Position numbers and translations under genes: made by a program
Assembly (NCBI GenBank): GCA_943354165.1
Contig: CALRBH010000003.1
Span: 5,149-69,148 of the forward strand
Direction of reading: 5' to 3'
Length of the DNA stretch: 64,000 nucleotides
DNA from: Candidatus Uhrbacteria bacterium RIFOXYB12_FULL_58_10
GTDB lineage: Bacteria; Patescibacteriota; Patescibacteriia; UBA9934; GWF2-40-263
The notes under the pieces: model-generated
What the model saw: only the letters and a program-made list of their open reading frames with translations
The model's database searches: none
Told to the model about the DNA's origin: nothing
Shown: positions 3,874 through 16,620 of the stretch, piece by piece
How the letters are laid out: every line of letters starts with the position of its first letter
Numbering within the stretch: the first letter of the stretch is position 1

Positions 3874-5085
3874 ATGCCCGACCCAGCGGTTCTCTCCGTA
3901 GGCCAATATCTCGAACTAGTAAACGACCGCCTGCGCGAAGCGGCGGCATTTGAGTTTTCCATCGAGGGTGAAGTCTCGGATTTTCGCGTCGCGCAGGGAA
4001 AATGGGTGAGCTTCGATTTGAAGGATGAACTCGCGCAGGCCGTACTCAAATGTTTCATGACCGCCTGGCAGCTTCCGCATAAGGTCGAGGACGGGATGCG
4101 CGTGCGCGTGACGGGAGCCCCGAAAGTGTACGAACGGTTCGGGACATTGAAGCTCAATGTGCAATCGCTCGAGCTGGTGGGCGAAGGCGCGCTGCGCCGG
4201 GCGTATGAGGCGCTCAAGAAAAAGCTCGTTGATGAGGGACTCTTCGATCCTTCGCGCAAGCGCCAGCTCCCGCGCTTTCCCGAGCGCATCGGGCTCATTA
4301 CAAGCCGGGATGCCGCCGCATACGGCGACTTTTTGCGCATTGTGAATAACCGGTGGGGAGGGGCGGAAGTGATGCACGTGTCCGTTCATGTGCAGGGAAA
4401 GGAAGCGGTTCACGAGATCATCGAAGCCTTTCAGTACTTCAACGCGCTCGCTCCGGAGGATCGCCCTGATGCGCTCGTCCTCATTCGCGGCGGCGGCGGG
4501 CTTGAGGATCTCCATGCGTTCAATGATGAAGCTGTGGCGCGTGCGGTATACGGAAGCGCGGTGCCTGTTGTGTGCGGTGTCGGCCACGAACGCGACGAGT
4601 CGCTCTGTGATTTCGTCGCGGACGTGCGCGCGTCTACGCCGAGCAACGCGGCCGAGCGCGTGGTCCCAAGCCGCGAGGACGTCGGCTACGAGATCGCGAT
4701 GACCGAACGTCTGTTCGAGGACCGCATGCGCGAAATGATTGACCGGATGCGCCGGCCTATCGAACGGCTGTCGGCGAGCGCGGAACTTCTTGTGCAAGGG
4801 AAGGCGCTTCGCTTCTCGCAAGTGACGGGCAGTTTCGAAGCCAGCTTCAGCCGGTTCCTTCCGCGCGTGAGCGAACGTCTGCTCGCGAGCGAGCGCGTGC
4901 TGCGTTCCGTAAGTCCGGAGCGCGTTCTCGAACGCGGATACGCGATCGTACGTTCCGGCAAGGGAATCGTCCGCGATACGGGCGCCCTCGACATCGGATC
5001 CGATATTTCTGTACAATTGGCCGAAGGAAGCTTTGAGGCGGAAGTCCAGAGGGTGGAAGGCAAGGGGAAAACGAAATTGTTCTAG
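3874..5085 (+). CDS. xseA: Exodeoxyribonuclease VII large subunit
   Basis: N-terminal OB-fold and catalytic region typical of XseA. 403 aa. Followed directly by xseB. Confidence 0.9.
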   Translation: MPDPAVLSVGQYLELVNDRLREAAAFEFSIEGEVSDFRVAQGKWVSFDLKDELAQAVLKCFMTAWQLPHKVEDGMRVRVTGAPKVYERFGTLKLNVQSLELVGEGALRRAYEALKKKLVDEGLFDPSRKRQLPRFPERIGLITSRDAAAYGDFLRIVNNRWGGAEVMHVSVHVQGKEAVHEIIEAFQYFNALAPEDRPDALVLIRGGGGLEDLHAFNDEAVARAVYGSAVPVVCGVGHERDESLCDFVADVRASTPSNAAERVVPSREDVGYEIAMTERLFEDRMREMIDRMRRPIERLSASAELLVQGKALRFSQVTGSFEASFSRFLPRVSERLLASERVLRSVSPERVLERGYAIVRSGKGIVRDTGALDIGSDISVQLAEGSFEAEVQRVEGKGKTKLF

Positions 5086-7194: not shown

Positions 7195-7590
7195 ATGTCC
7201 GACGAAATCAAGAAGGAAGTTCCAGCCAAGTTCGCCAGCATCGTTTCTGAAGTGGAAAAGATGTCCGTGCTCGACCTCGCTGAGCTCGTGAAGGTGCTTG
7301 AAGACAAGTTCGGCGTTTCCGCGGCCGCTCCAGTCATGATGGCTGCAGCTGGCGGTGGCGCGGCTGTTGCGGAAGAGAAGTCTATCTTCGACGTTGAACT
7401 CACCGCTGCAGGTGCCGCTAAGATCAATGTGATCAAGGCTGTGCGCGAAATCACCGGTCTCGGCCTCAAGGAAGCCAAGGACATCGTGGACGCAGCTCCA
7501 AAGGCTGTGAAGACGGGTGTCGCGAAGGCTGAAGCTGAGGAAATGAAGAAGAAGCTCGAGGAAGCTGGTGCTACAGTTACATTGAAGTAA
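7195..7590 (+). CDS. rplL: 50S ribosomal protein L7/L12
   Basis: Ala-rich hinge and C-terminal domain ([13 protein letters not shown]) typical of L7/L12. Confidence 0.95.
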
Positions 7591-7591
7591 A

Positions 7592-7678
7592 CGACAAATA
7601 AAAAACGACAAACGACAAAAAAAGACAGAAACGACAAAGGGTAAAACCTTTGTCGTTTTTCGTTTGTCGTTTATCGCT
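7592..7678. terminator. Bidirectional terminator hairpin built from ACGACAA heptamers
   Basis: Left arm contains (acgacaa)n, loop gtaaaacc, right arm contains (ttgtcgt)n. Lies between convergent rplL (+) and the 7677-9854 (-) gene. Confidence 0.6.
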
Positions 7679-9854
7679 ATAAGTGGCTCAGGCGGACGGC
7701 GTAAAGCTTTGTTCCGGAGAGGATATAGGCAGTTTTTGTTGCTTCATCAATGATCACATCAAGCGCGTTTTCAAACGTGGGAGAGACGATTTGTGAGGTA
7801 AACGTTCCGGATTCCTTGGTATAGATCAGCAGACGCTTCTGCGCGGGCTCAAGGACATAAAGCCAGGTACTTGAGACGTCGGTCCAAATATCGGTTCCGG
7901 AGGACAGGGGTGGATCCACCACACTCGGCTTCCATCCCATCTGCCCACCGCTCGAGAACCGGACGACGTCCGAGCCTGTGAGGATGAAGACGGTGGCGTC
8001 GATGGCAAACGACCTGGCCTTTTCGAGGGTTACGGCTTTTGAACGAATCCACGGGCTTGGCGCGCTCCATCCACTGCCGGCGCGGGCGAACCGTTGGATC
8101 TGTCCGTCCGTTCCATTGGTTTCCAGGAGATAGAGTTTGTCCGCGTAAATCGTGAGATCGTTCCATGATGTTCCTGCCGCAGGAAGGAGGTCTGAGACAT
8201 GAAGGCCGTTGTCTTTGAAATCGAATCGCGAGAGGCCTGGTCGGTCGTCGAGGAATAAGATGCGGTCCGCGTCCAACGCAGCCTCGCGAGCGCTTCCTAC
8301 TTCGCCAATCGCGGCGATGATCGGCTCCGCCTTCTTTGCCGCCGGATCTATGCGGAAGACATGCTTGTCTGCCGAGAGGACATAAAGAAGTCCATCCTTA
8401 GAAATTAACGTACGGGCATCGGTGACCCCGAGGACGGCCAGGTCGGTGACAAGCGGAGGGTCTGGAATATTTACCGCCCGGCGTAGCTCATCAAGGCTCT
8501 GGGCAATGGACACCTTCAGCTCGTTTGCCGATTGTCCACGCTCTTCCGTGTCTGCAGGAAGTACTTCCGTAAGCGCAGATGCCTGTTGATAAAGGGCACG
8601 TGCTCTGGATTCATCTTGATAAATGACGGCCGCAGCGGCCTGTTCGCGCAAATCTCGGATCTGATCGATTTGCGCGGCATAGGTGGCATCAAGTTCCGCT
8701 GTTGCATGGGAACGGGAGAGGAAGGAGATGCTAAGAATGAGCGCAAAGACGACGCCGCCTGCGGCAACAAGAAGATATTTGCTACTAGGAGGAAGTTTAC
8801 GCAAGGATCCGAACGCCTTTGTGGCCGCCCGATCCGCACGGACCTTTACGCCTTCTGAGATGGCATAACGCGTCTCCTTATCAATGCCTTTTGGAAGAAC
8901 GGATTTTCCATGCCGCGTAATGCTTGCAATGCGTGTCTTTGTGGCAAGGAAGAGTCCGGAGATCCTGGCAGCCCTGCGCAGGAGGGCAGGCATCGTAGGT
9001 CGTTCGGCGCCGGCGACCTTTGGCTTTCGGCTGCGCAACCAGTTTCCGATGATGGTGAATGCGTTTCCCGGACGAGGACTCTGATCTTCAAGCAGACGTG
9101 TGGTTTCATCGCGTTTGTCGTGGAGGTTGGTAAGGGAACGCTCGGAGCTTGGCTTGGCCGTCTCAAAGGTGCTTCCGACGGAGGTGGCGCAGACCACGAA
9201 CACACTTACGCCCCCCTTGGGAGGGAAGTATTGGCGGATTTTGGCAGCAGCCCCGGTTGGCGGGAGCGTGGAGAGAATGGAACACAGCTCATCCGTGTCG
9301 ATGGTGGGCTGGAGATCCCGGTTGGCCACGCACAGCACGTCGCCTTCGTGCAGCTCGCCATCGAGCACAACCGCAAACGCTTTCTCCCAGGTGGGAAGTG
9401 CCTGTTCGGTTCGGATCGATCGTGACAGGTTGAACACCTGGTAGCGCTGCTGGGGCGTGCGATGCAGGAACATCGCCGTCACATCGCCGTTTCCGGAAAG
9501 GTACATCGTCTCTCCTTCCGCAATGCCGACCACGGCAAGAAAGGAGCCGATCGGCAACGACCACTCGGAATTTTTTACCGTGAGTGCGATGGTCTCGTTC
9601 AGCGAGGCTAAAAATTGTTCAAACCGGTGCTGAGCGTGTGCGTCCTCTCCAAACGAGTCGGCAAGGCGCTCAATGTGCTCCTCAATGATGGTCCGCAAAC
9701 GCTCCGCATCCATGGCGGATCGTCCCTGGGCGTCACAAAGCGCAAACGCGAATCCCATCCGCCCTTCGAGCGGTCGGACGATAACCATACGGCCCTCTTC
9801 CTTGCCTGCGAGGGGTGGATCCGTGAATTGTCCAGCTTTTAGCTCAATTTCCAT
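7677..9854 (-). CDS. Transmembrane protein with N-terminal cytoplasmic PP2C-like (probably degenerate) phosphatase domain and C-terminal extracytoplasmic beta-propeller-like domain
   Basis: 725 aa. N-terminal motifs resemble the PP2C fold (GFAFALCDAQG, YLSGNGDVTAMFL, GDVLCVANRDL) but lack the DGxGG metal-binding motif. One TM helix (YLLVAAGGVVFALILSISFL). Confidence 0.55.
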   Translation of the reverse strand: MEIELKAGQFTDPPLAGKEEGRMVIVRPLEGRMGFAFALCDAQGRSAMDAERLRTIIEEHIERLADSFGEDAHAQHRFEQFLASLNETIALTVKNSEWSLPIGSFLAVVGIAEGETMYLSGNGDVTAMFLHRTPQQRYQVFNLSRSIRTEQALPTWEKAFAVVLDGELHEGDVLCVANRDLQPTIDTDELCSILSTLPPTGAAAKIRQYFPPKGGVSVFVVCATSVGSTFETAKPSSERSLTNLHDKRDETTRLLEDQSPRPGNAFTIIGNWLRSRKPKVAGAERPTMPALLRRAARISGLFLATKTRIASITRHGKSVLPKGIDKETRYAISEGVKVRADRAATKAFGSLRKLPPSSKYLLVAAGGVVFALILSISFLSRSHATAELDATYAAQIDQIRDLREQAAAAVIYQDESRARALYQQASALTEVLPADTEERGQSANELKVSIAQSLDELRRAVNIPDPPLVTDLAVLGVTDARTLISKDGLLYVLSADKHVFRIDPAAKKAEPIIAAIGEVGSAREAALDADRILFLDDRPGLSRFDFKDNGLHVSDLLPAAGTSWNDLTIYADKLYLLETNGTDGQIQRFARAGSGWSAPSPWIRSKAVTLEKARSFAIDATVFILTGSDVVRFSSGGQMGWKPSVVDPPLSSGTDIWTDVSSTWLYVLEPAQKRLLIYTKESGTFTSQIVSPTFENALDVIIDEATKTAYILSGTKLYAVRLSHL

Positions 9855-11773: not shown

Positions 11774-12787
11774 ATGCCAGATATCCCCATGCCTAATAGT
11801 GCCGATTTTCTCTTGTACACCGGCCCGGACGGGGCAGTGCGGATTGACGTGTTCATGCGAGATGAAACGGTCTGGCTTACGCAGAAGCGGATGGCCGAGT
11901 TATTTGGCGTAGACAGAAGCGTCATTACGAAGCACTTAAGCAATATTTTTGAAGAAGCTGAGTTGAGCGAAAAAACAGTATGTGCAAATTTTGCACATAC
12001 TGCCGCTGACGGAAAAACCTATGAAACGCAGTTTTATAGTCTGGACGCGATCATTGCGGTTGGCTATCGCGTGAACTCCGAACAAGCAACGCAATTTCGT
12101 ATCTGGGCGACCAAGACCCTCAGTGGATACGTTGTAAAGGGGTTTGCGATCGATGACGAACGCCTTAAGAACGGACAGCACTTCGGGAAGGATTACTTCG
12201 ATGAACTGCTCGAGAAGATCCGGGAGATCCGCGCGAGCGAGCGCCGTTTCTATCAAAAGATCACGGACCTCTACGCGCAAGCAAGCATTGATTACGACAA
12301 GGCTTCCGAAACGACTTTTACGTTTTACAAGACCGTCCAGAACAAATTGCACTGCGCGATTCATGGGCACACAGCTCCTGAACTGATCGTGGAACGTGCA
12401 GATAGTGCGAAGCCAAAGATGGGACTTACGACGTGGAAGAACGCCCCTGCAGGGAAGATCCTCAAGTCCGATGTGGCCGTTGCAAAGAATTATCTGGAGG
12501 AGAAGGAGCTGACCGAACTCAATCGTGTCGTCTCCATGTATTTGGATTACGCCGAAGGGCAAGCGAAGAAACAACGGACGATGACCATGTGTGATTGGGC
12601 GGAAAAACTCGATGCGTTTCTTGCCTTCAATGAATACGATCTGCTGCGCGATGCGGGAAAAATCTCCGCAGAGGTGGCGAAGAAGTTGGCGGAGGAGGAA
12701 TACGAGAAATATCGCATTATCCAGGATCAGCAGTTTGTTTCAGATTTTGACGAGACGACGCGAAAATATCTTGAGGGAGGTGTATGA
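11774..12787 (+). CDS. RhuM-family protein
   Basis: N-terminal LLYTGPDGAVRIDVFMRDETVWLTQKRMAELFGVDRSVITKHLSNIF is the hallmark of the RhuM (PF13310) family, which is often island-borne. Confidence 0.75.
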   Translation: MPDIPMPNSADFLLYTGPDGAVRIDVFMRDETVWLTQKRMAELFGVDRSVITKHLSNIFEEAELSEKTVCANFAHTAADGKTYETQFYSLDAIIAVGYRVNSEQATQFRIWATKTLSGYVVKGFAIDDERLKNGQHFGKDYFDELLEKIREIRASERRFYQKITDLYAQASIDYDKASETTFTFYKTVQNKLHCAIHGHTAPELIVERADSAKPKMGLTTWKNAPAGKILKSDVAVAKNYLEEKELTELNRVVSMYLDYAEGQAKKQRTMTMCDWAEKLDAFLAFNEYDLLRDAGKISAEVAKKLAEEEYEKYRIIQDQQFVSDFDETTRKYLEGGV

Positions 12788-12802: not shown

Positions 12803-14767
12803 GTGTGCAACCTTGACTCAAGATATCCACATATGCCCGAACGCCCCGGCCCTGGCCCAGAATTCCTAAAGAAGAAATACGACCTCCATAACACCCCGGA
12901 GGTCGCTTCGGCAGTGAAACGCACCGAGATTCGTACTGGCGAAAAGGCCCCGCAAGACCCGACTGTTCGCATCCAGAACTATCTCGACCGGCTCGAGCGA
13001 CTTGTCCTCGATACAGAAAAAACGCAGCGGCGGAAAAAACTGAAGGGAGGACGGGATGATGCCGAACGCCCACGAGCCATGACCTTGCTACGGGAAATGG
13101 TCATGAACAAATACGTTCGTCCTCAGAAGGAAAAGATGGCGCAGGCCGCTACTCGTGTGGAAGAACGCGCGGCAGGGGAACTCGGCATCAACATGCGTTA
13201 CACAGAAGAACAGCGAGAGCAGCGCGGCGACATCGCCGTAGAGGACGTGGAAGGCTCTCTCGACCAATGGATCAACTATCTTTCAGATCCGAACGAACCG
13301 TATCCGACCTGGTTTCGCTATTACGCCTTCCGAAACATTTTGGATCTGGGCGAGTACGACAAGGACAAAGGCGCGTTCCCAGAACGTTCTGCAGGAACCA
13401 TCCGCCTGTTTCCTGACATCGACCGGGGAGCCTTGGCCCACATGCAGGACCTTATCGAGGCTGATAAAGACTCAACCGTCTTTGATCGCTTACGGCATGC
13501 CCAGATGGAAACGCAGACACCGGCCGACCAGCTGCTAACCAAGGAAAAGGTTAAGGCGTTCGCAAACCTTTCCTTCGCCAAACAATACGCCGAAAGTATG
13601 AAGGAAGCGGGAGAAATCACTCCCGAGCTTCGAGCCGAAACCCGGGGATCGTGGGTGACATATCCAAAGGATTCAGACCCCGCTCCTTTGTGGAAGTCCC
13701 TTCAAAACAAAGGGGCTGCCTGGTGCACGAAAGGCTACGGCACGGCCGCGAACCAGCTGAAGGATGGAGATTTTCACGTTTATTACACCTTAGACAAGCA
13801 AGGGAACCCGACCATTCCTCGCATCGCCGTTCGGATGGTGGCTGAAAAGGTTTTTGAAGCGCGGGGAGTTGCCGACACGAAACAAAATCTTGAAGCCAAC
13901 ATGGCGGATATTGCTGAACAGAAGCTAAATCAGCTCCCCGGTGCGGAGAAATACCGCAAAGCAAGTGCGGACATGAAACAGCTCACCGACATCGGGAACA
14001 AGACTGAGAAGGAAACCGCTCTTACCAAGGCCGAACTAACGTTCCTATATGAGATCGATGGGTCGATCGAAGGGTTTGGGTATGGCCAAGACCCACGCAT
14101 AAAGGAGATTCAAGCCAAGCGTAATACCAAGGAGGATGCTCCTATTGTTCTTGACGTCGCTCCGGAAGAAATCGCCTGGAGCAAGAGTGAGATCGATCCA
14201 ATCCTCACCCGTGCCTACATCGGCCCATTGTTCCCGGGTGTATTCGAGATAAAAAATCTTGAACATTTGTACACAACTTTTCCTGCACGCGAAATTACGA
14301 CGACCACCCTCGAAGTCGGTGGGAAGACTCCGAAGCAATACGCCACCGAACTCACTAAGGCCGGTTTCAAGATTTACGACTACGCGCAGCAAATGCTCGA
14401 TAGAGCCGAGAAGGAAAAACTGTTTGTTGCAAAACGAAGTGAGAAAGATATTGTCCGTCTCACAGTAGCTGATCTCGGATTTTCGAATGGAGCCACGAAC
14501 CAGCAGATATGGGATCGCGGAATAGAGCTAGGCCTCGATCTGTGCCCTCCCGAGGTTGGACCAGAACTTCGTCTCTCCATGAAAGATCAACCACAAGGTG
14601 ATTATGTGGTTGTTATGATGAAACCCATCGCGGTCGCTGGTGGCGGCCTGGACGCGTTCGGCGTGTATGCGCGTGGCGGCGACCGCTGGCTCTTCGACGA
14701 CGATGGTCATCCCGGCCGCAGGCGGGATACCGACGATGCCGTTGCCTTCCTCCGTCGCAAGCATTAG
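12803..14767 (+). CDS. DGR target protein (variable C-terminal CLec/FGE-like region)
   Basis: 654 aa (alternative ATG at 12833). C-terminus ...YARGGDRWLFDDDGHPGRRRDTDDAVAFLRRKH resembles RGGSW...GFRL of FGE-type C-type-lectin folds that host DGR VRs. No signal peptide seen. Confidence 0.75.
   Translation: MCNLDSRYPHMPERPGPGPEFLKKKYDLHNTPEVASAVKRTEIRTGEKAPQDPTVRIQNYLDRLERLVLDTEKTQRRKKLKGGRDDAERPRAMTLLREMVMNKYVRPQKEKMAQAATRVEERAAGELGINMRYTEEQREQRGDIAVEDVEGSLDQWINYLSDPNEPYPTWFRYYAFRNILDLGEYDKDKGAFPERSAGTIRLFPDIDRGALAHMQDLIEADKDSTVFDRLRHAQMETQTPADQLLTKEKVKAFANLSFAKQYAESMKEAGEITPELRAETRGSWVTYPKDSDPAPLWKSLQNKGAAWCTKGYGTAANQLKDGDFHVYYTLDKQGNPTIPRIAVRMVAEKVFEARGVADTKQNLEANMADIAEQKLNQLPGAEKYRKASADMKQLTDIGNKTEKETALTKAELTFLYEIDGSIEGFGYGQDPRIKEIQAKRNTKEDAPIVLDVAPEEIAWSKSEIDPILTRAYIGPLFPGVFEIKNLEHLYTTFPAREITTTTLEVGGKTPKQYATELTKAGFKIYDYAQQMLDRAEKEKLFVAKRSEKDIVRLTVADLGFSNGATNQQIWDRGIELGLDLCPPEVGPELRLSMKDQPQGDYVVVMMKPIAVAGGGLDAFGVYARGGDRWLFDDDGHPGRRRDTDDAVAFLRRKH
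14631..14760 (+). repeat. DGR variable repeat (VR)
   Basis: Aligns with TR (offset 449 bp) over 130 bp. All 19 mismatches correspond to A in TR. The last ~40 bp are identical including unmutated As (IMH-like). Confidence 0.85.
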
Positions 14768-15079
14768 TACTTAGTCCTCGATTTTTTTAGATCTAGCCCT
14801 CAGTTCCTATGCCCTAAAAAACTTTTAGGATTTATACGTGTGATAGAATTGGAGAGGTAGTAGGCGAATCTTGCGAGAGATCACGGTTTCCCGCGGCCGA
14901 ATCCAGCATCTGTACATCGAGAATGTCTTCGATCACGGTTGGAGACAGGGTGGTGTATATGTCTTTCAAAAAATTGAAGATGCTTGGTGTGGGGTGCTAG
15001 GGCATTATGATGCCGAATTCGATTCAGCCCTGAGAATGGTCAAAGGGCGGTGTTTTGGAAGGCGCTCCATACATACGGA

Positions 15080-15209
15080 CGGACGCTGATGGCGACCTGA
15101 ACGCGTTCAACGTGAATGCGAATGACGGCGACCGCTGGCTCAACAACGACAATGGTCATCCCGACAACAAGCGGAATACCGACGATGCCGTTGCCTTCCT
15201 CCGTCGCAA
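15080..15209 (+). repeat. DGR template repeat (TR)
   Basis: Contains AAC/AAT codons (caacaacgacaat, cccgacaacaagcggaat) opposite varied VR codons. ORF 15055-15324 spanning it is probably not a protein. Confidence 0.85.
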
Positions 15210-15214
15210 CCACT

Positions 15215-15553
15215 TCATTTCTCTTCCGTCGCGGCAGACACGGAAGAGTTTTGTTTTTTGTTCAGTTGGCCGTCCCATCCGCCGAGGTTTCTTCCAATTT
15301 CATCTAGGAGTTCCGATAGCGTGATATATTTCTTGTTATCGAGCGATCCTGTTTCCCATAGGATCATCAGGAGAATTTTAGCCGTGTCGAGTTTGCGGAT
15401 CGCAAATCGGACCAGAGGAGATTTTTCCGGCTTCGGTAAAAAAGCAGCAACAGCAAGTGTCTCTATAACTTCTACAAATAGGCAATCTACCCGGATACCG
15501 AGCGAGTAACGGTGAGTTTTCGGGATCGTCTGGAGATAATTAAACCAAAGCAA
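15215..15553 (-). CDS. avd: Avd-like four-helix-bundle protein (accessory variability determinant candidate)
   Basis: ...KYITLSELLDEIGRNLGGW... closely matches the four-helix-bundle (IVS/Avd) family ending EIGKMLGGWIKS. TTG start; frame open to 15610, so helix 1 may start further upstream. Opposite strand to the RT. Confidence 0.6.
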   Translation of the reverse strand: MLWFNYLQTIPKTHRYSLGIRVDCLFVEVIETLAVAAFLPKPEKSPLVRFAIRKLDTAKILLMILWETGSLDNKKYITLSELLDEIGRNLGGWDGQLNKKQNSSVSAATEEK

Positions 15554-15618
15554 GTATGCACGTTTGGATTTCTCTAAAACTGGCAGTAATTGCGTTGGGG
15601 GGGGGAAAACTTAATTGA

Positions 15619-16620
15619 ATGTCGAATCGATTCGTCCATACGTACGAGGATATCATCTCGATCGAAAACCTGCTTGCGGCTTGGGAGGAATTTACGGTTG
15701 GTAAACGAGGACGGATTGATGTGCAGGAGTTTGGATTGAATCTGATGTCCAATATATTTGCCTTGCGTCGGGATCTTGTTGGCAAAACGTATGTTCACTC
15801 GCCGTATCATGCGTTTAACATCTCTGATCCAAAGCCACGGAATATCCATAAGGCAGCCGTAAGCGATCGTCTGCTGCATCATGCCGTTTATCGGATGCTC
15901 TATCCGTACTTTGACGCCAGGTTCATTGCGGATTCGTTTTCTTGTCGATTGGGGAAGGGGACGCATCGGGCGTTAGATCGGTTTCGTTCGTTCGCAAACA
16001 AGGTTTCACTGAATCACATACGAACGGTTTGGGTATTGAAGTGTGACATTAGGAAGTTCTTTGCGAATATCGATCACACCATCCTCTTAGGGATCCTGGG
16101 ACGATCAATCACTGACAAGGACATCAAGTGGCTGTTGGGGAGGATTGTCGGAAGTTTTTCGTCGACTCGGCACGGCGTCGGTTTACCGCTCGGGAATCTC
16201 ACCTCCCAGTTATTCGTGAATATCTACATGAACGAGTTTGATCAGTTCGTGAAAAAGAAACTGCACGTGAAGCATTACGTCCGATACGCTGATGATTTCG
16301 TCTTTCTGAGTGAAGATCGGAGCTGTTTGATCGGGGCCCTTACAGATATTGCTAACTTTCTCGGATCTCGATTGAGACTTTCATTGCATCCTGACAAGGT
16401 TTTTATTCAGACTTTTGCCTCGGGTGTAGATTTCCTTGGTTGGACCCATTTTCCTGATCACAGGGTCTTACGGACGACGACGAAACGGAGGATGATGAAC
16501 AGGATCAGTGAGGGGGTTGGAGATATGACCAAGGCCTCGTATCTCGGCCTGCTTATACATGGAAATGCGTTTGAAGCACAGCAGAAGATATCAAATACAC
16601 CTAACATCATTTTTGCTTGA
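15619..16620 (+). CDS. DGR reverse transcriptase
   Basis: 333 aa. Motifs FSCRLGKGTHRAL, VLKCDIRKFFANIDH, GLPLGNLTSQLFVNIYMNEFD (DGR-specific I/LGxxxSQ) and VRYADDFVFL (YxDD). Confidence 0.9.
   Translation: MSNRFVHTYEDIISIENLLAAWEEFTVGKRGRIDVQEFGLNLMSNIFALRRDLVGKTYVHSPYHAFNISDPKPRNIHKAAVSDRLLHHAVYRMLYPYFDARFIADSFSCRLGKGTHRALDRFRSFANKVSLNHIRTVWVLKCDIRKFFANIDHTILLGILGRSITDKDIKWLLGRIVGSFSSTRHGVGLPLGNLTSQLFVNIYMNEFDQFVKKKLHVKHYVRYADDFVFLSEDRSCLIGALTDIANFLGSRLRLSLHPDKVFIQTFASGVDFLGWTHFPDHRVLRTTTKRRMMNRISEGVGDMTKASYLGLLIHGNAFEAQQKISNTPNIIFA

Follow-up and report, generated by a model that had tools for sequence, protein, structure and literature searches.

Evidence for a CPR-type diversity-generating retroelement in a Patescibacteria chromosome, with a predicted structured RNA around its template repeat

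[quoted passage not shown] The TR, delimited by repeat comparison with the VR, follows at 15080..15209 (+). The gene for the accessory variability determinant, avd, which encodes 112 aa from a TTG start, is on the minus strand at 15215..15553 and is thus oriented divergently from the 333-aa RT encoded on the plus strand at 15619..16620. This TR (+), avd (-), RT (+) order in a Patescibacteria host is that of a CPR-type diversity-generating retroelement (DGR). An earlier note on this DNA had described a complete DGR cassette of target-VR, TR, Avd-like gene and RT, and the RT match, the Avd match, the adenine-only TR/VR differences and the recurrence of the cassette in about 19 species all bear this out. 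The note had correctly placed the Avd-like gene between TR and RT, but had missed its minus-strand orientation.

As the earlier note had proposed from DGR-form motifs, the ORF at 15619-16620 is an RT (Pfam RVT_1, E 1.2e-21), with LGNLTSQ at residues 191-197, YADD at 223-226 and R74 aligned to R74 of bRT. The DGR RT motif (I/L/V)GxxxSQ is present where group II intron RTs have QGxxxSP. The best PDB match was 8ub7_A (E 1.2e-41), which the PDB table labels only 'Reverse transcriptase' and which we take to be the Bordetella phage DGR RT; the next was a chain deposited as a retron-type RT (E 1.6e-19), and a group II intron RT matched at 3.4e-19. Identity to the RTs of related CPR cassettes was 57-68%. 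The minus-strand gene between TR and RT matched both NCBIfam DivGenRetAVD (E 1.9e-12, 47 bits versus an 80-bit curated cutoff) and Pfam bAvd (E 7e-8, 33 bits versus a 40-bit curated cutoff), and both matches are significant, though under the curated cutoffs, which supports its reading as the Avd partner of a DGR. A minus-strand avd lay directly upstream of the RT in all 61 of 61 RT-selected loci. Were the RT of another class (group II intron, retron or Abi/DRT defence), the repeat would be a chance duplication. NCBIfam does return sub-threshold matches of this kind, to the group II intron RT/maturase model TIGR04416 (133.5 bits versus a cutoff of 300) and to Drt and retron models, but all are far under their cutoffs, and the best solved relative is a DGR RT by 22 orders of magnitude. 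Furthermore, no Rfam intron or retron RNA was found at 14600-15700, and adenine-only mismatches, an Avd gene and a conserved TR RNA are features specific to DGRs, leaving this explanation with next to no probability.

A repeat search recovered a 133-nt direct repeat (14631-14763 and 15080-15212; 85% identity, offset 449), in agreement with the roughly 85% identity claimed before between 15080-15209 and 14631-14760. Nineteen of its 20 mismatches are at TR adenines (A->G 13, A->T 4, A->C 2), and the twentieth, at 14761 (TR C, VR G), falls where homology stops. Within 14631-14760, 0 of 97 non-A positions differ and 19 of 19 mismatches are on TR adenines, the same 19 A-templated positions that had been counted before; as A makes up about 26% of TR positions, the probability of this by chance is approximately 0.26^19, or about 1e-11. 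Read in the VR frame, the TR translates as DADGDLNAFNVNANDGDRWLNNDNGHPDNKRNTDDAVAFLRR, with 12 adenines at codon position 1, 21 at position 2 and none at position 3, and all 19 VR differences are in codon positions 1 or 2. Since the adenines are restricted to these positions, mostly in AAC/GAC-type codons, up to approximately 20 residues could be recoded with no stop codons. The VR lies inside a coding gene with the TR adenines placed for maximal recoding, as in a DGR. The last A-mismatch is at 14726, and the following 34 nt (14727-14760, +) are identical in TR and VR despite six TR adenines inside them, which is consistent with an IMH/IMH* boundary at the 3' end of the VR; the IMH of the Bordetella phage is 34 bp (Wu 2018, PMC5758913). 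A folding scan found no convincing GC-rich cruciform downstream of the VR, and there was no second VR-like copy on either strand of the 64-kb window.

ATG 12833 is the most likely start of the target, as the 644-aa form is identical (100%) to the protein on record, P0001, and homologues align from this codon. The 654-aa ORF that the earlier note had reported is present, but its GTG start at 12803 is less likely. We found no Pfam, NCBIfam or PDB sequence match to the target and no transmembrane (TM) segment or signal peptide (maximum 19-residue Kyte-Doolittle hydropathy 1.39), as had been suspected of its N-terminal region. Since it lacks both a signal peptide and TM segments, the default reading of its sequence is that of an intracellular binder. 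A target without recognisable TM or conserved domain is typical of CPR DGR clade 2 (Roux 2021, PMC8144416). Its relatives are numerous: more than 600 full-length homologues with 55-60% identity were found in Patescibacteria, with records from Yanofsky-, Giovannoni-, Moran-, Sung-, Buchanan-, Komeili- and Falkowbacteria and other Patescibacteria MAGs, and the very large family comprises 7,325 clusters of signal-less proteins. At the VR, the homologue alignment shows hypervariable positions within a conserved frame.

In an AF2 model of the target (pLDDT 88.6), the VR-bearing C-terminus is predicted to form a compact C-type-lectin-like (CLec) domain (residues 528-644; 14414..14764, +). The closest solved fold is the C-terminal domain of Bdellovibrio Bd2740 (8oks), which has 8% sequence identity and is not known as DGR-diversified. 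The earlier note had suggested an FGE/CLec-like C-terminus and named structure prediction as the way to check it; the CLec part is upheld at the level of the predicted fold, but neither the whole target nor its C-terminal 188 aa matched FGE-sulfatase (PF03781) or DUF1566 in Pfam at E <= 10. A PcfJ-like domain (PF14284) has been reported in some CPR DGR targets (Wu 2018, PMC5758913). Among 30 members of the present target family there was no Pfam match to PcfJ at E <= 1, and comparing the family profile with pCF10 PcfJ by hhalign, where the PcfJ profile was shallow, yielded a probability of 0.3%, so that a PcfJ-like identity is not supported. By eye, WCTKG...GDFYVYY...EVRG in the target resembles HCVGS...TTIVFIR...QIQG in PcfJ, which is a lead only. 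A GNAT/MYST acetyltransferase fold, which would call for a structural match together with an acetyl-CoA-binding motif, was also considered as a candidate for part of the N-terminal 527 aa.

The 225 nt upstream of the TR (14855..15079, +) form a structured domain with five helices supported by covariation: H1 (14873-14881/14886-14894), H2 (14924-14933/14938-14947), H3 (14987-14998/15061-15072), H4 (15002-15006/15009-15013) and H5 (15027-15031/15044-15048), of which two are apparent duplicates. Across its 39 pairs, 96.5% of alignment cells are paired, versus 40-48% when the partners are slid, and 29 of the 39 pairs carry compensatory double changes. The covariance model built from this domain (R1) scored 179 bits in the window (E 1.6e-53, match starting at 14855) and matched 55 of 80 RT-selected loci; every match in held-out and RT-selected loci shared the strand of the RT and lay 520-780 nt upstream of it. 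We weighed whether this region might instead be a small protein gene or a DNA-level regulatory region, given that a 72-aa ORF between VR and TR (14871-15089) overlaps it in the window. The ORF was rejected as a gene because stop codons interrupt all six frames at most related loci; with indels that are not in multiples of three and the pairing and compensatory changes just given, we consider a coding or DNA-level role highly unlikely, and retain the structured RNA.

Features on either side suggest that the TR is carried in a self-contained RNA gene of approximately 400 nt, with putative ends at about 14855 and 15259. An extended -10 promoter-like box, TGaTAGAAT (14841..14849, +), which a -35/-10 promoter scan of the window had missed, borders the conserved RNA on its 5' side; most related loci have a TGnTAnnnT box at the corresponding place of alignment A4, and we infer that it may be the RNA promoter. 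RNAalifold on the whole-RNA alignment (A8) predicted a long-range helix between AUUGAAGAUGCUU (14973..14985, +) and AACCACUUCAUU (15208..15219, +), the first two bases of the latter being the last two of the TR. This helix has moderate support, with 84.8% of cells paired versus 44-60% for the slid two-helix structure and double changes in 6 of 12 pairs, and its pairing would enclose H3-H5 and the TR. Directly after it, a hairpin and T-rich tract (15221..15259, +) consist of a 9-bp stem (CUCUUCCGU / ACGGAAGAG) with a 10-nt loop, followed by UUUUGUUUUUU. The hairpin has a folding energy of -15.6 kcal/mol (z -2.5) and compensatory changes in all 6 consensus pairs, and hairpin and tract are readable in most TR-bearing loci. 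It could be a terminator, an equivalent of the Avd-binding stem-loops of about 9 bp that have been predicted immediately downstream of the TR for 207 of 278 DGRs (Handa 2024), or both. Over approximately its last 15 codons, avd runs antisense to the 3' elements of this RNA, so that the two overlap at their 3' ends. At E <= 1, no Rfam 15 family matched 14600-15700 except a chance CRISPR-DR match on the hairpin. Nor did we find an RNA model around the TR in the DGR papers that were read. The earlier note makes no mention of a structured RNA around the TR.

In approximately 19 other Patescibacteria species, orthologous targets are accompanied by a cassette of the same target-TR-avd(-)-RT(+) order and adenine bias; of the TR/VR mismatches in these species, 363 of 419 were at TR adenines, and in most RT-selected metagenome loci the TR and VR are 100% identical at non-A positions. 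Neither TR nor RT is present at approximately 25 orthologous target loci for which the flank spans at least 5 kb, and seven further loci, some on short contigs, have no TR-like repeat or RT/avd in the available sequence and carry degenerate RNA remnants scoring 42-91 bits. Beside the large target family, the RNA may thus also be a marker of orphan TRs and decayed DGRs. As many related genomes have lost the DGR, its function is often lost in this family. These losses and remnants raise the prospect that the window holds a complete-looking fossil, whose VR, once diversified, no longer changes, and in line with this the homologue search found one VR allele on record and a scan of JGI metagenomes found no A-variant VRs. 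However, none of the RT, avd and target ORFs is disrupted, the catalytic YADD is kept, and the RNA domain, at 179 bits, is on par with that of loci retaining a full TR and mostly the RT. Since not one of the 97 non-A positions differs between VR and TR, the VR was rewritten recently relative to neutral drift. The DGR has apparently been active recently, and we judge a frozen fossil to be unlikely.

Because DGRs were first found in phage and a RhuM-family gene (11774-12787; Pfam E 3e-112) adjoins the target, we also asked whether the cassette might be phage- or island-borne and serve tropism switching, with RhuM as the mark of a mobile element. RhuM-family genes are common on islands and prophages. 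This cassette is nevertheless flanked by cellular genes, among them those for ribosomal proteins L10 and L12, one with a weak match to the TsaD family, one for an MscS-like channel and glycosyltransferase genes. The target does not resemble a tail fibre, and its cellular relatives number in the thousands. A gene-by-gene inspection of four orthologous loci found the cassette or target in differing chromosomal contexts, with no RhuM gene called; the RhuM neighbour listed in the earlier note is thus present but incidental. As CPR clade 2 DGRs are in addition almost entirely cellular (Roux 2021, PMC8144416), a phage or island origin seems very improbable, and the chromosomal reading is preferred.

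No categorical difference separates the locus from described CPR DGRs (Roux 2021 clade 2, PMC8144416; Wu 2018 B3, PMC5758913), with which it shares a cellular, chromosomal Patescibacteria setting, the common gene order target-VR, TR, reversed avd, RT, a VR at the extreme C-terminus and a target without recognisable TM or conserved domain. The B3 architecture, with reversed avd between TR and RT, accounts for 90% of CPR DGRs (Wu 2018, PMC5758913). Likeness to the Bordetella phage BPP-1 DGR (mtd-avd-TR-brt; 8ub7; Handa et al. [quoted passage not shown] In BPP-1, however, all genes are co-oriented with avd before the TR, whereas here avd is reversed and 3' of it; the BPP-1 element resides in a phage, whereas here the host is a cell and the target is no tail-fibre protein. 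The main RNA scaffold of BPP-1 (Sp, approximately 140 nt) is 3' of the TR, whereas the window has a 225-nt, five-helix scaffold 5' of the TR and only about 50 nt (helix strand, hairpin and U-tract) after it before the avd antisense. The cellular CLec-fold DGR targets TvpA of Treponema denticola (2y3c) and Legionella LdtA bear lipoprotein signals, have FGE-sulfatase-type CLec domains of approximately 200 aa and are displayed on the surface, unlike the present target, which has no signal peptide and a minimal CLec of about 112 aa joined to a 527-aa N-terminal region with no fold family assigned. The RT-1 to RT-19 motifs (Weinberg et al. 2017, PMC5737381) are likewise structured RNAs beside bacterial RT genes, but neither they nor other Rfam families matched 14600-15700, the chance CRISPR-DR aside.

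Taken together, the locus is very probably a chromosomal Patescibacteria (CPR)-type DGR with mutagenic retrohoming on the last 44 target codons. In the mechanism that we propose, a non-coding RNA of about 400 nt (~14855-15259, +; putative ends) would be transcribed from its own extended -10 promoter, and its 5' domain, TR-closing long-range helix and 9-bp hairpin may recruit and position RT-Avd, by analogy with the Bordetella phage RNP. The RT would copy the TR into cDNA, misincorporating opposite template adenines, the outcome of which is seen in the adenine-only TR/VR differences, and the cDNA would presumably replace the VR up to the 34-nt IMH-like boundary. Each round could recode up to approximately 20 residues on the C-terminal strands and loops of the compact C-type-lectin fold, yielding a hypervariable binding surface. 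For the RT of the window and its 57-68%-identical Patescibacteria relatives, we propose tentatively, and with somewhat more doubt than confidence, that the scaffold for protein docking lies mostly 5' of the TR on a dedicated RNA of approximately 400 nt, permuted relative to the Bordetella phage and belonging to a family absent from Rfam. As part of the same tentative reading, the orphan TRs and decayed DGRs that this RNA would mark may reflect a hypervariation repeatedly acquired and lost by an intracellular binder. The locus is a further member of the well-catalogued CPR DGR class, reportedly first surveyed by Paul et al. 2017, to which this analysis adds a CLec-like fold for this class of VR, a measure of how large the target family is and a model for the RNA that surrounds the TR.

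A repeat search of the window returned a 133-nt direct repeat of 85% identity (14631-14763 and 15080-15212), which contains the variable repeat (VR, 14631-14760) that ends the target gene (12833-14767, + strand) and the template repeat (TR, 15080-15209). The earlier note had proposed exactly this pair, with differences at TR adenines, and the comparison bears it out. The copies differ at 20 bases, 19 of them at an A in the downstream copy that reads G (13), T (4) or C (2) upstream; the twentieth, at 14761, is where the homology stops. TR and VR agree at all 97 non-A template positions in 14631-14760, and with about one quarter of the template being A, the chance of 19 of 19 mismatches falling at A is ~1e-11. 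This absence of non-A mismatches suggests that the diversity-generating retroelement (DGR) has probably been active recently. In the target frame, 12 TR adenines lie at codon position 1, 21 at position 2 and none at position 3. Over the final 34 nt (14727-14760) TR and VR are identical despite six adenines, a pattern consistent with an IMH boundary, the 3' limit of the VR/TR pair; the Bordetella phage IMH is 34 bp (Wu et al. 2018, PMC5758913). No further VR-like copies were found within the 64-kb window, and scanning JGI metagenomes for other VR alleles (the TR with A->N) gave 0 matches.

The reverse transcriptase (RT) ORF (333 aa, 15619-16620, + strand) encodes an RVT_1 protein with the motifs and residues R74, L191-GNLT-S196-Q197 and YADD. 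Its best solved relative is 8ub7_A, the Bordetella phage DGR RT (E 1.2e-41, alignment spanning residues 4-298). The runner-up structures scored 1.6e-19, for a chain deposited as a retron-type RT, and 3.4e-19, for a group II intron RT, and the NCBIfam group II, Drt and retron models matched the RT far under their cutoffs. The Avd-like gene suspected from the sequence is real, as avd (15215-15553, - strand) matched NCBIfam DivGenRetAVD (E 1.9e-12) and Pfam bAvd (E 7e-8). It is divergent from the RT, with a gap of 65 bp to the RT start; the original description of the cassette had every element in place but overlooked this minus-strand, RT-divergent orientation. The layout is the 'B3' architecture, found in 90% of DGRs of the CPR (Patescibacteria) and almost nowhere else (Wu et al. 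2018, PMC5758913). Given the A-confined TR/VR differences, the DGR-like RT and the significant avd matches, the reading as a complete DGR holds, and the locus is a true, complete DGR of the well-described CPR type. Because the enrichment of DGRs in CPR is already known, the locus changes little as a DGR; what is chiefly of interest is the conserved TR-bearing RNA gene, which is absent from Rfam.

The ~250 nt preceding the TR are conserved across loci, and in a multi-locus alignment an extended -10 box (TGnTAnnnT, 14841-14849) immediately precedes the conserved block; upstream of the TR, a sigma-70 -35/-10 scan gave no + strand promoter. RNAalifold predicted five helices, H1-H5, in this 5' domain (14855-15079). 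In a 16-species alignment of the domain, 96.5% of cells were paired versus 40-48% with partners slid, double compensatory changes occurred at 29 of the 39 pairs, and the observed covariation score was reached by no shuffle. Since no conserved ORF spans the 5' domain in related loci, the 72-aa ORF of the window at 14871-15089, which lies across the 5' domain and reaches into the TR, is considered spurious. H1 (14873-14894) and H2 (14924-14947) share a stem, bulge and GGY-loop-RYY architecture, and each has one G-U pair that is G-U in all sequences with letters at both positions. The two look like duplicates of one another and might act as equivalent docking hairpins for protein. Searching 14600-15700 against Rfam 15 (E <= 1) returned no family except a chance CRISPR-DR match on the post-TR hairpin.

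Downstream of the TR, a hairpin followed by a T-rich tract is readable in most loci. In the window, the hairpin has a 9-bp stem (15221-15248) and precedes a T-rich tract at 15249-15259; together they may also serve as a transcription terminator. Folding of the whole-RNA alignment predicted a further, long-range helix (14973-14985 with 15208-15219) that encloses H3-H5 and the TR, with 84.8% of cells paired versus 44-60% in slid controls of the two-helix structure, and double changes at 6 of 12 pairs. Pairing of the A-rich linker AAAAAAGAA with the post-hairpin U-tract was rejected, as register and covariation failed between two subgroups; RNAalifold instead paired the segment just past the A-run with the TR-hairpin spacer, with compensatory changes present. 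Downstream of the VR, the search for a GC-rich cruciform gave no convincing candidate. avd has its stop codon at 15215-15217 (minus strand), and its final ~15 codons run antisense (15215-15259) to three parts of the RNA: the U-tract, the post-TR hairpin and the 3' strand of the long-range helix. As the 3' end of avd overlaps these RNA elements, the transcripts must converge, with an overlap of at least 45 nt. In relatives such as locus L006 the avd stop codon falls within the loop of the hairpin, and a conserved Lys-rich tail (EKKNR) is encoded antisense to the U-tract.

In the Bordetella phage ribonucleoprotein (RNP), TR-flanking RNA wraps around RT-Avd, Avd is bound by a stem-loop immediately 3' of the TR, and an upstream/downstream duplex, the 'cPRT Stop', contributes to the positioning and limiting of reverse transcription (Handa et al. 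2024). The 9-bp hairpin and long-range helix of the window resemble this scheme, whereas the large structured scaffold 5' of the TR does not. Stem-loops, commonly of 9 bp, and duplexes were predicted in 207 of 278 DGRs, CPR included, in a search confined to 40 nt on the 5' side of the TR and 100 nt on its 3' side (Handa et al. 2024); in the window, H3 takes up the 40 nt that directly precede the TR. Our data suggest that the CPR DGR RNA scaffold is organised differently from the sole structurally solved DGR RNP.

R1, a covariance model of the 5' domain, matched the window at 14855-15099 (179 bits, E 1.6e-53) and recovered the held-out loci L020, L038, L023, L008, L019 and L058. It also matched 55 of 80 metagenome loci selected by their RT (L065-L144; RT identity 60-68%, out of >586), in each case on the same strand as the RT and 520-780 nt upstream from it. 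Shortened R1 copies of 42-91 bits were present beside target genes in seven loci: L035 (5778-5937), L061 (5765-5924), L015 (3416-3566), L044 (3026-3241), L047 (1688-1951, cut by the contig end), L043 (5099-5235) and L010 (2193-2290). No TR-like repeat, RT or avd was found at these seven loci, some on short contigs, and the copies look like remnants of decayed DGRs. R1 thus offers an RT-independent route to TRs that also detects orphan and decayed copies.

Among the RT-selected loci, avd directly preceded the RT, on the minus strand, in all 61 with enough sequence, and the VR lay ~450 nt upstream of the TR, with non-A identity mostly 100%. Only 9 of 38 targets resembled that of the window, mostly in the C-terminal domain only; the remainder were proteins of 190-270 aa that bear no relation to it, have other VR scaffolds and match nothing in Pfam. 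As the targets are mostly unrelated, the RNA-avd-RT module must combine with different targets. The small targets, for example at L101 (2357-3130), L068 (2360-3115) and L138 (2562-3137), carry end motifs such as FFWGTIYRxSxGxLxVRxLxFxxGxW...PAALxAS.

A reciprocal selection comprised 58 GTDB species representatives encoding a target homologue. An intact avd(-)/RT(+) pair stood beside the target in about 15 of them, two more (L050 and L055) kept no more than partial avd or RT remnants, and a TR was present in about 20; across 19 loci, TR adenines accounted for 363 of 419 TR/VR mismatches. In three loci the entire TR-avd-RT module was inverted relative to the target. Three loci, L009, L031 and L058, had a TR and no RT or avd inside the ~6 kb flank, so that the RT either acts in trans from another place in the genome or was lost recently. 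The complete TR RNA, in each case with an A-biased TR/VR pair, occupies 8033-8420 in L009, 5488-5937 (minus) in L031 and 7985-8430 in L058; L008 resembles these RT-less loci, with a weaker TR match (74/110). TR and RT were both absent at about 25 loci with ample flank, where one target gene lies between fusA and tuf and another adjoins topA. The former, in the ribosomal protein cluster of L004, has three 47-nt direct repeats with TAGCGTACGC upstream (4600-4875). In L002, a DGR-less target gene lies between 84-nt direct repeats of 94% identity (4864-4947 and 7330-7413), the first inside an upstream 44-aa called ORF and the second overlapping the start of a RecO_N gene (7400-7831); this arrangement suggests insertion of the target gene into the 5' region of recO. 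L040 and L050 share one 487-kb Komeilibacteria contig (JBLYPW010000001.1) and hold paralogous target genes, one with a TR and degraded avd and the other without DGR parts.

The likeliest start of the target is the ATG at 12833, giving 644 aa; the recorded product, P0001, is 100% identical and lies on a 90-kb contig of ENA assembly ERZ28613056. The earlier note had described a protein without signal peptide or recognisable N-terminal domain, and searches agree: the N-terminus is hydrophilic, no hydrophobic segment is present (19-residue hydropathy maximum 1.39), and Pfam, NCBIfam and the PDB yielded no sequence match. Such signal-less, domain-less targets have been reported as typical of CPR DGRs (Roux et al. 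2021, PMC8144416). More than 600 full-length homologues of 55-60% identity occur in many Patescibacteria lineages, every one annotated as hypothetical. Their first ~590 residues are strongly conserved, and the last ~45 have hypervariable positions in a fixed frame, MKQIxDRxGxPxVFxLxRxGxGLWLxxxWAxPxxxWxPxxxFVFRLRK. A family profile run against 1.84 billion representatives matched 7,325 clusters at E <= 1e-3, among them proteins with other C-termini; the best 150 of the 7,325, the matches listed, were all strong family members and included no distant annotated relative. The N-terminal ~450-aa module joins other C-termini in proteins reaching 1,131 aa (L052, L056, L057, L062, L063, P0143-P0150, P0226 and others; for example from Collier-, Woese- and Uhrbacteria). 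Ten long or variant-architecture members contained no credible Pfam domain (the eight longest with nothing, two others with marginal short-stretch matches).

An AlphaFold2 model of the target built from 119 sequences was confident (pLDDT 88.6). Its VR-bearing domain is predicted to be a minimal C-type-lectin (CLec) fold of ~112 residues, in agreement with the CLec-like C-terminus anticipated earlier. A GNAT-like signal somewhere in the N-terminal 527 aa is an unconfirmed lead. The central conserved motif resembled PcfJ by eye, a lead that went unconfirmed: Pfam gave no match in any of 30 members, and hhalign of the family profile against pCF10 PcfJ (NC_006827) gave no match. A homologue search with the PcfJ domain retrieved near-identical Enterococcus fragments only, too shallow for a useful PcfJ profile. 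The RhuM-family gene at 11774-12787 (Pfam E 3e-112) ends 46 nt before the target start; RhuM was not called beside the target in any of four other loci inspected gene by gene, and it is an incidental neighbour.

A previously unclassified CPR VR scaffold is now a predicted minimal CLec, extending the rule that DGRs diversify CLec folds. The target family that carries it is very large, wholly unannotated and signal-less, and only some members have kept a DGR. It thereby sharpens the question raised by Roux et al. (2021, PMC8144416) of whether the targets of CPR DGRs are truly non-membrane, intracellular binders.
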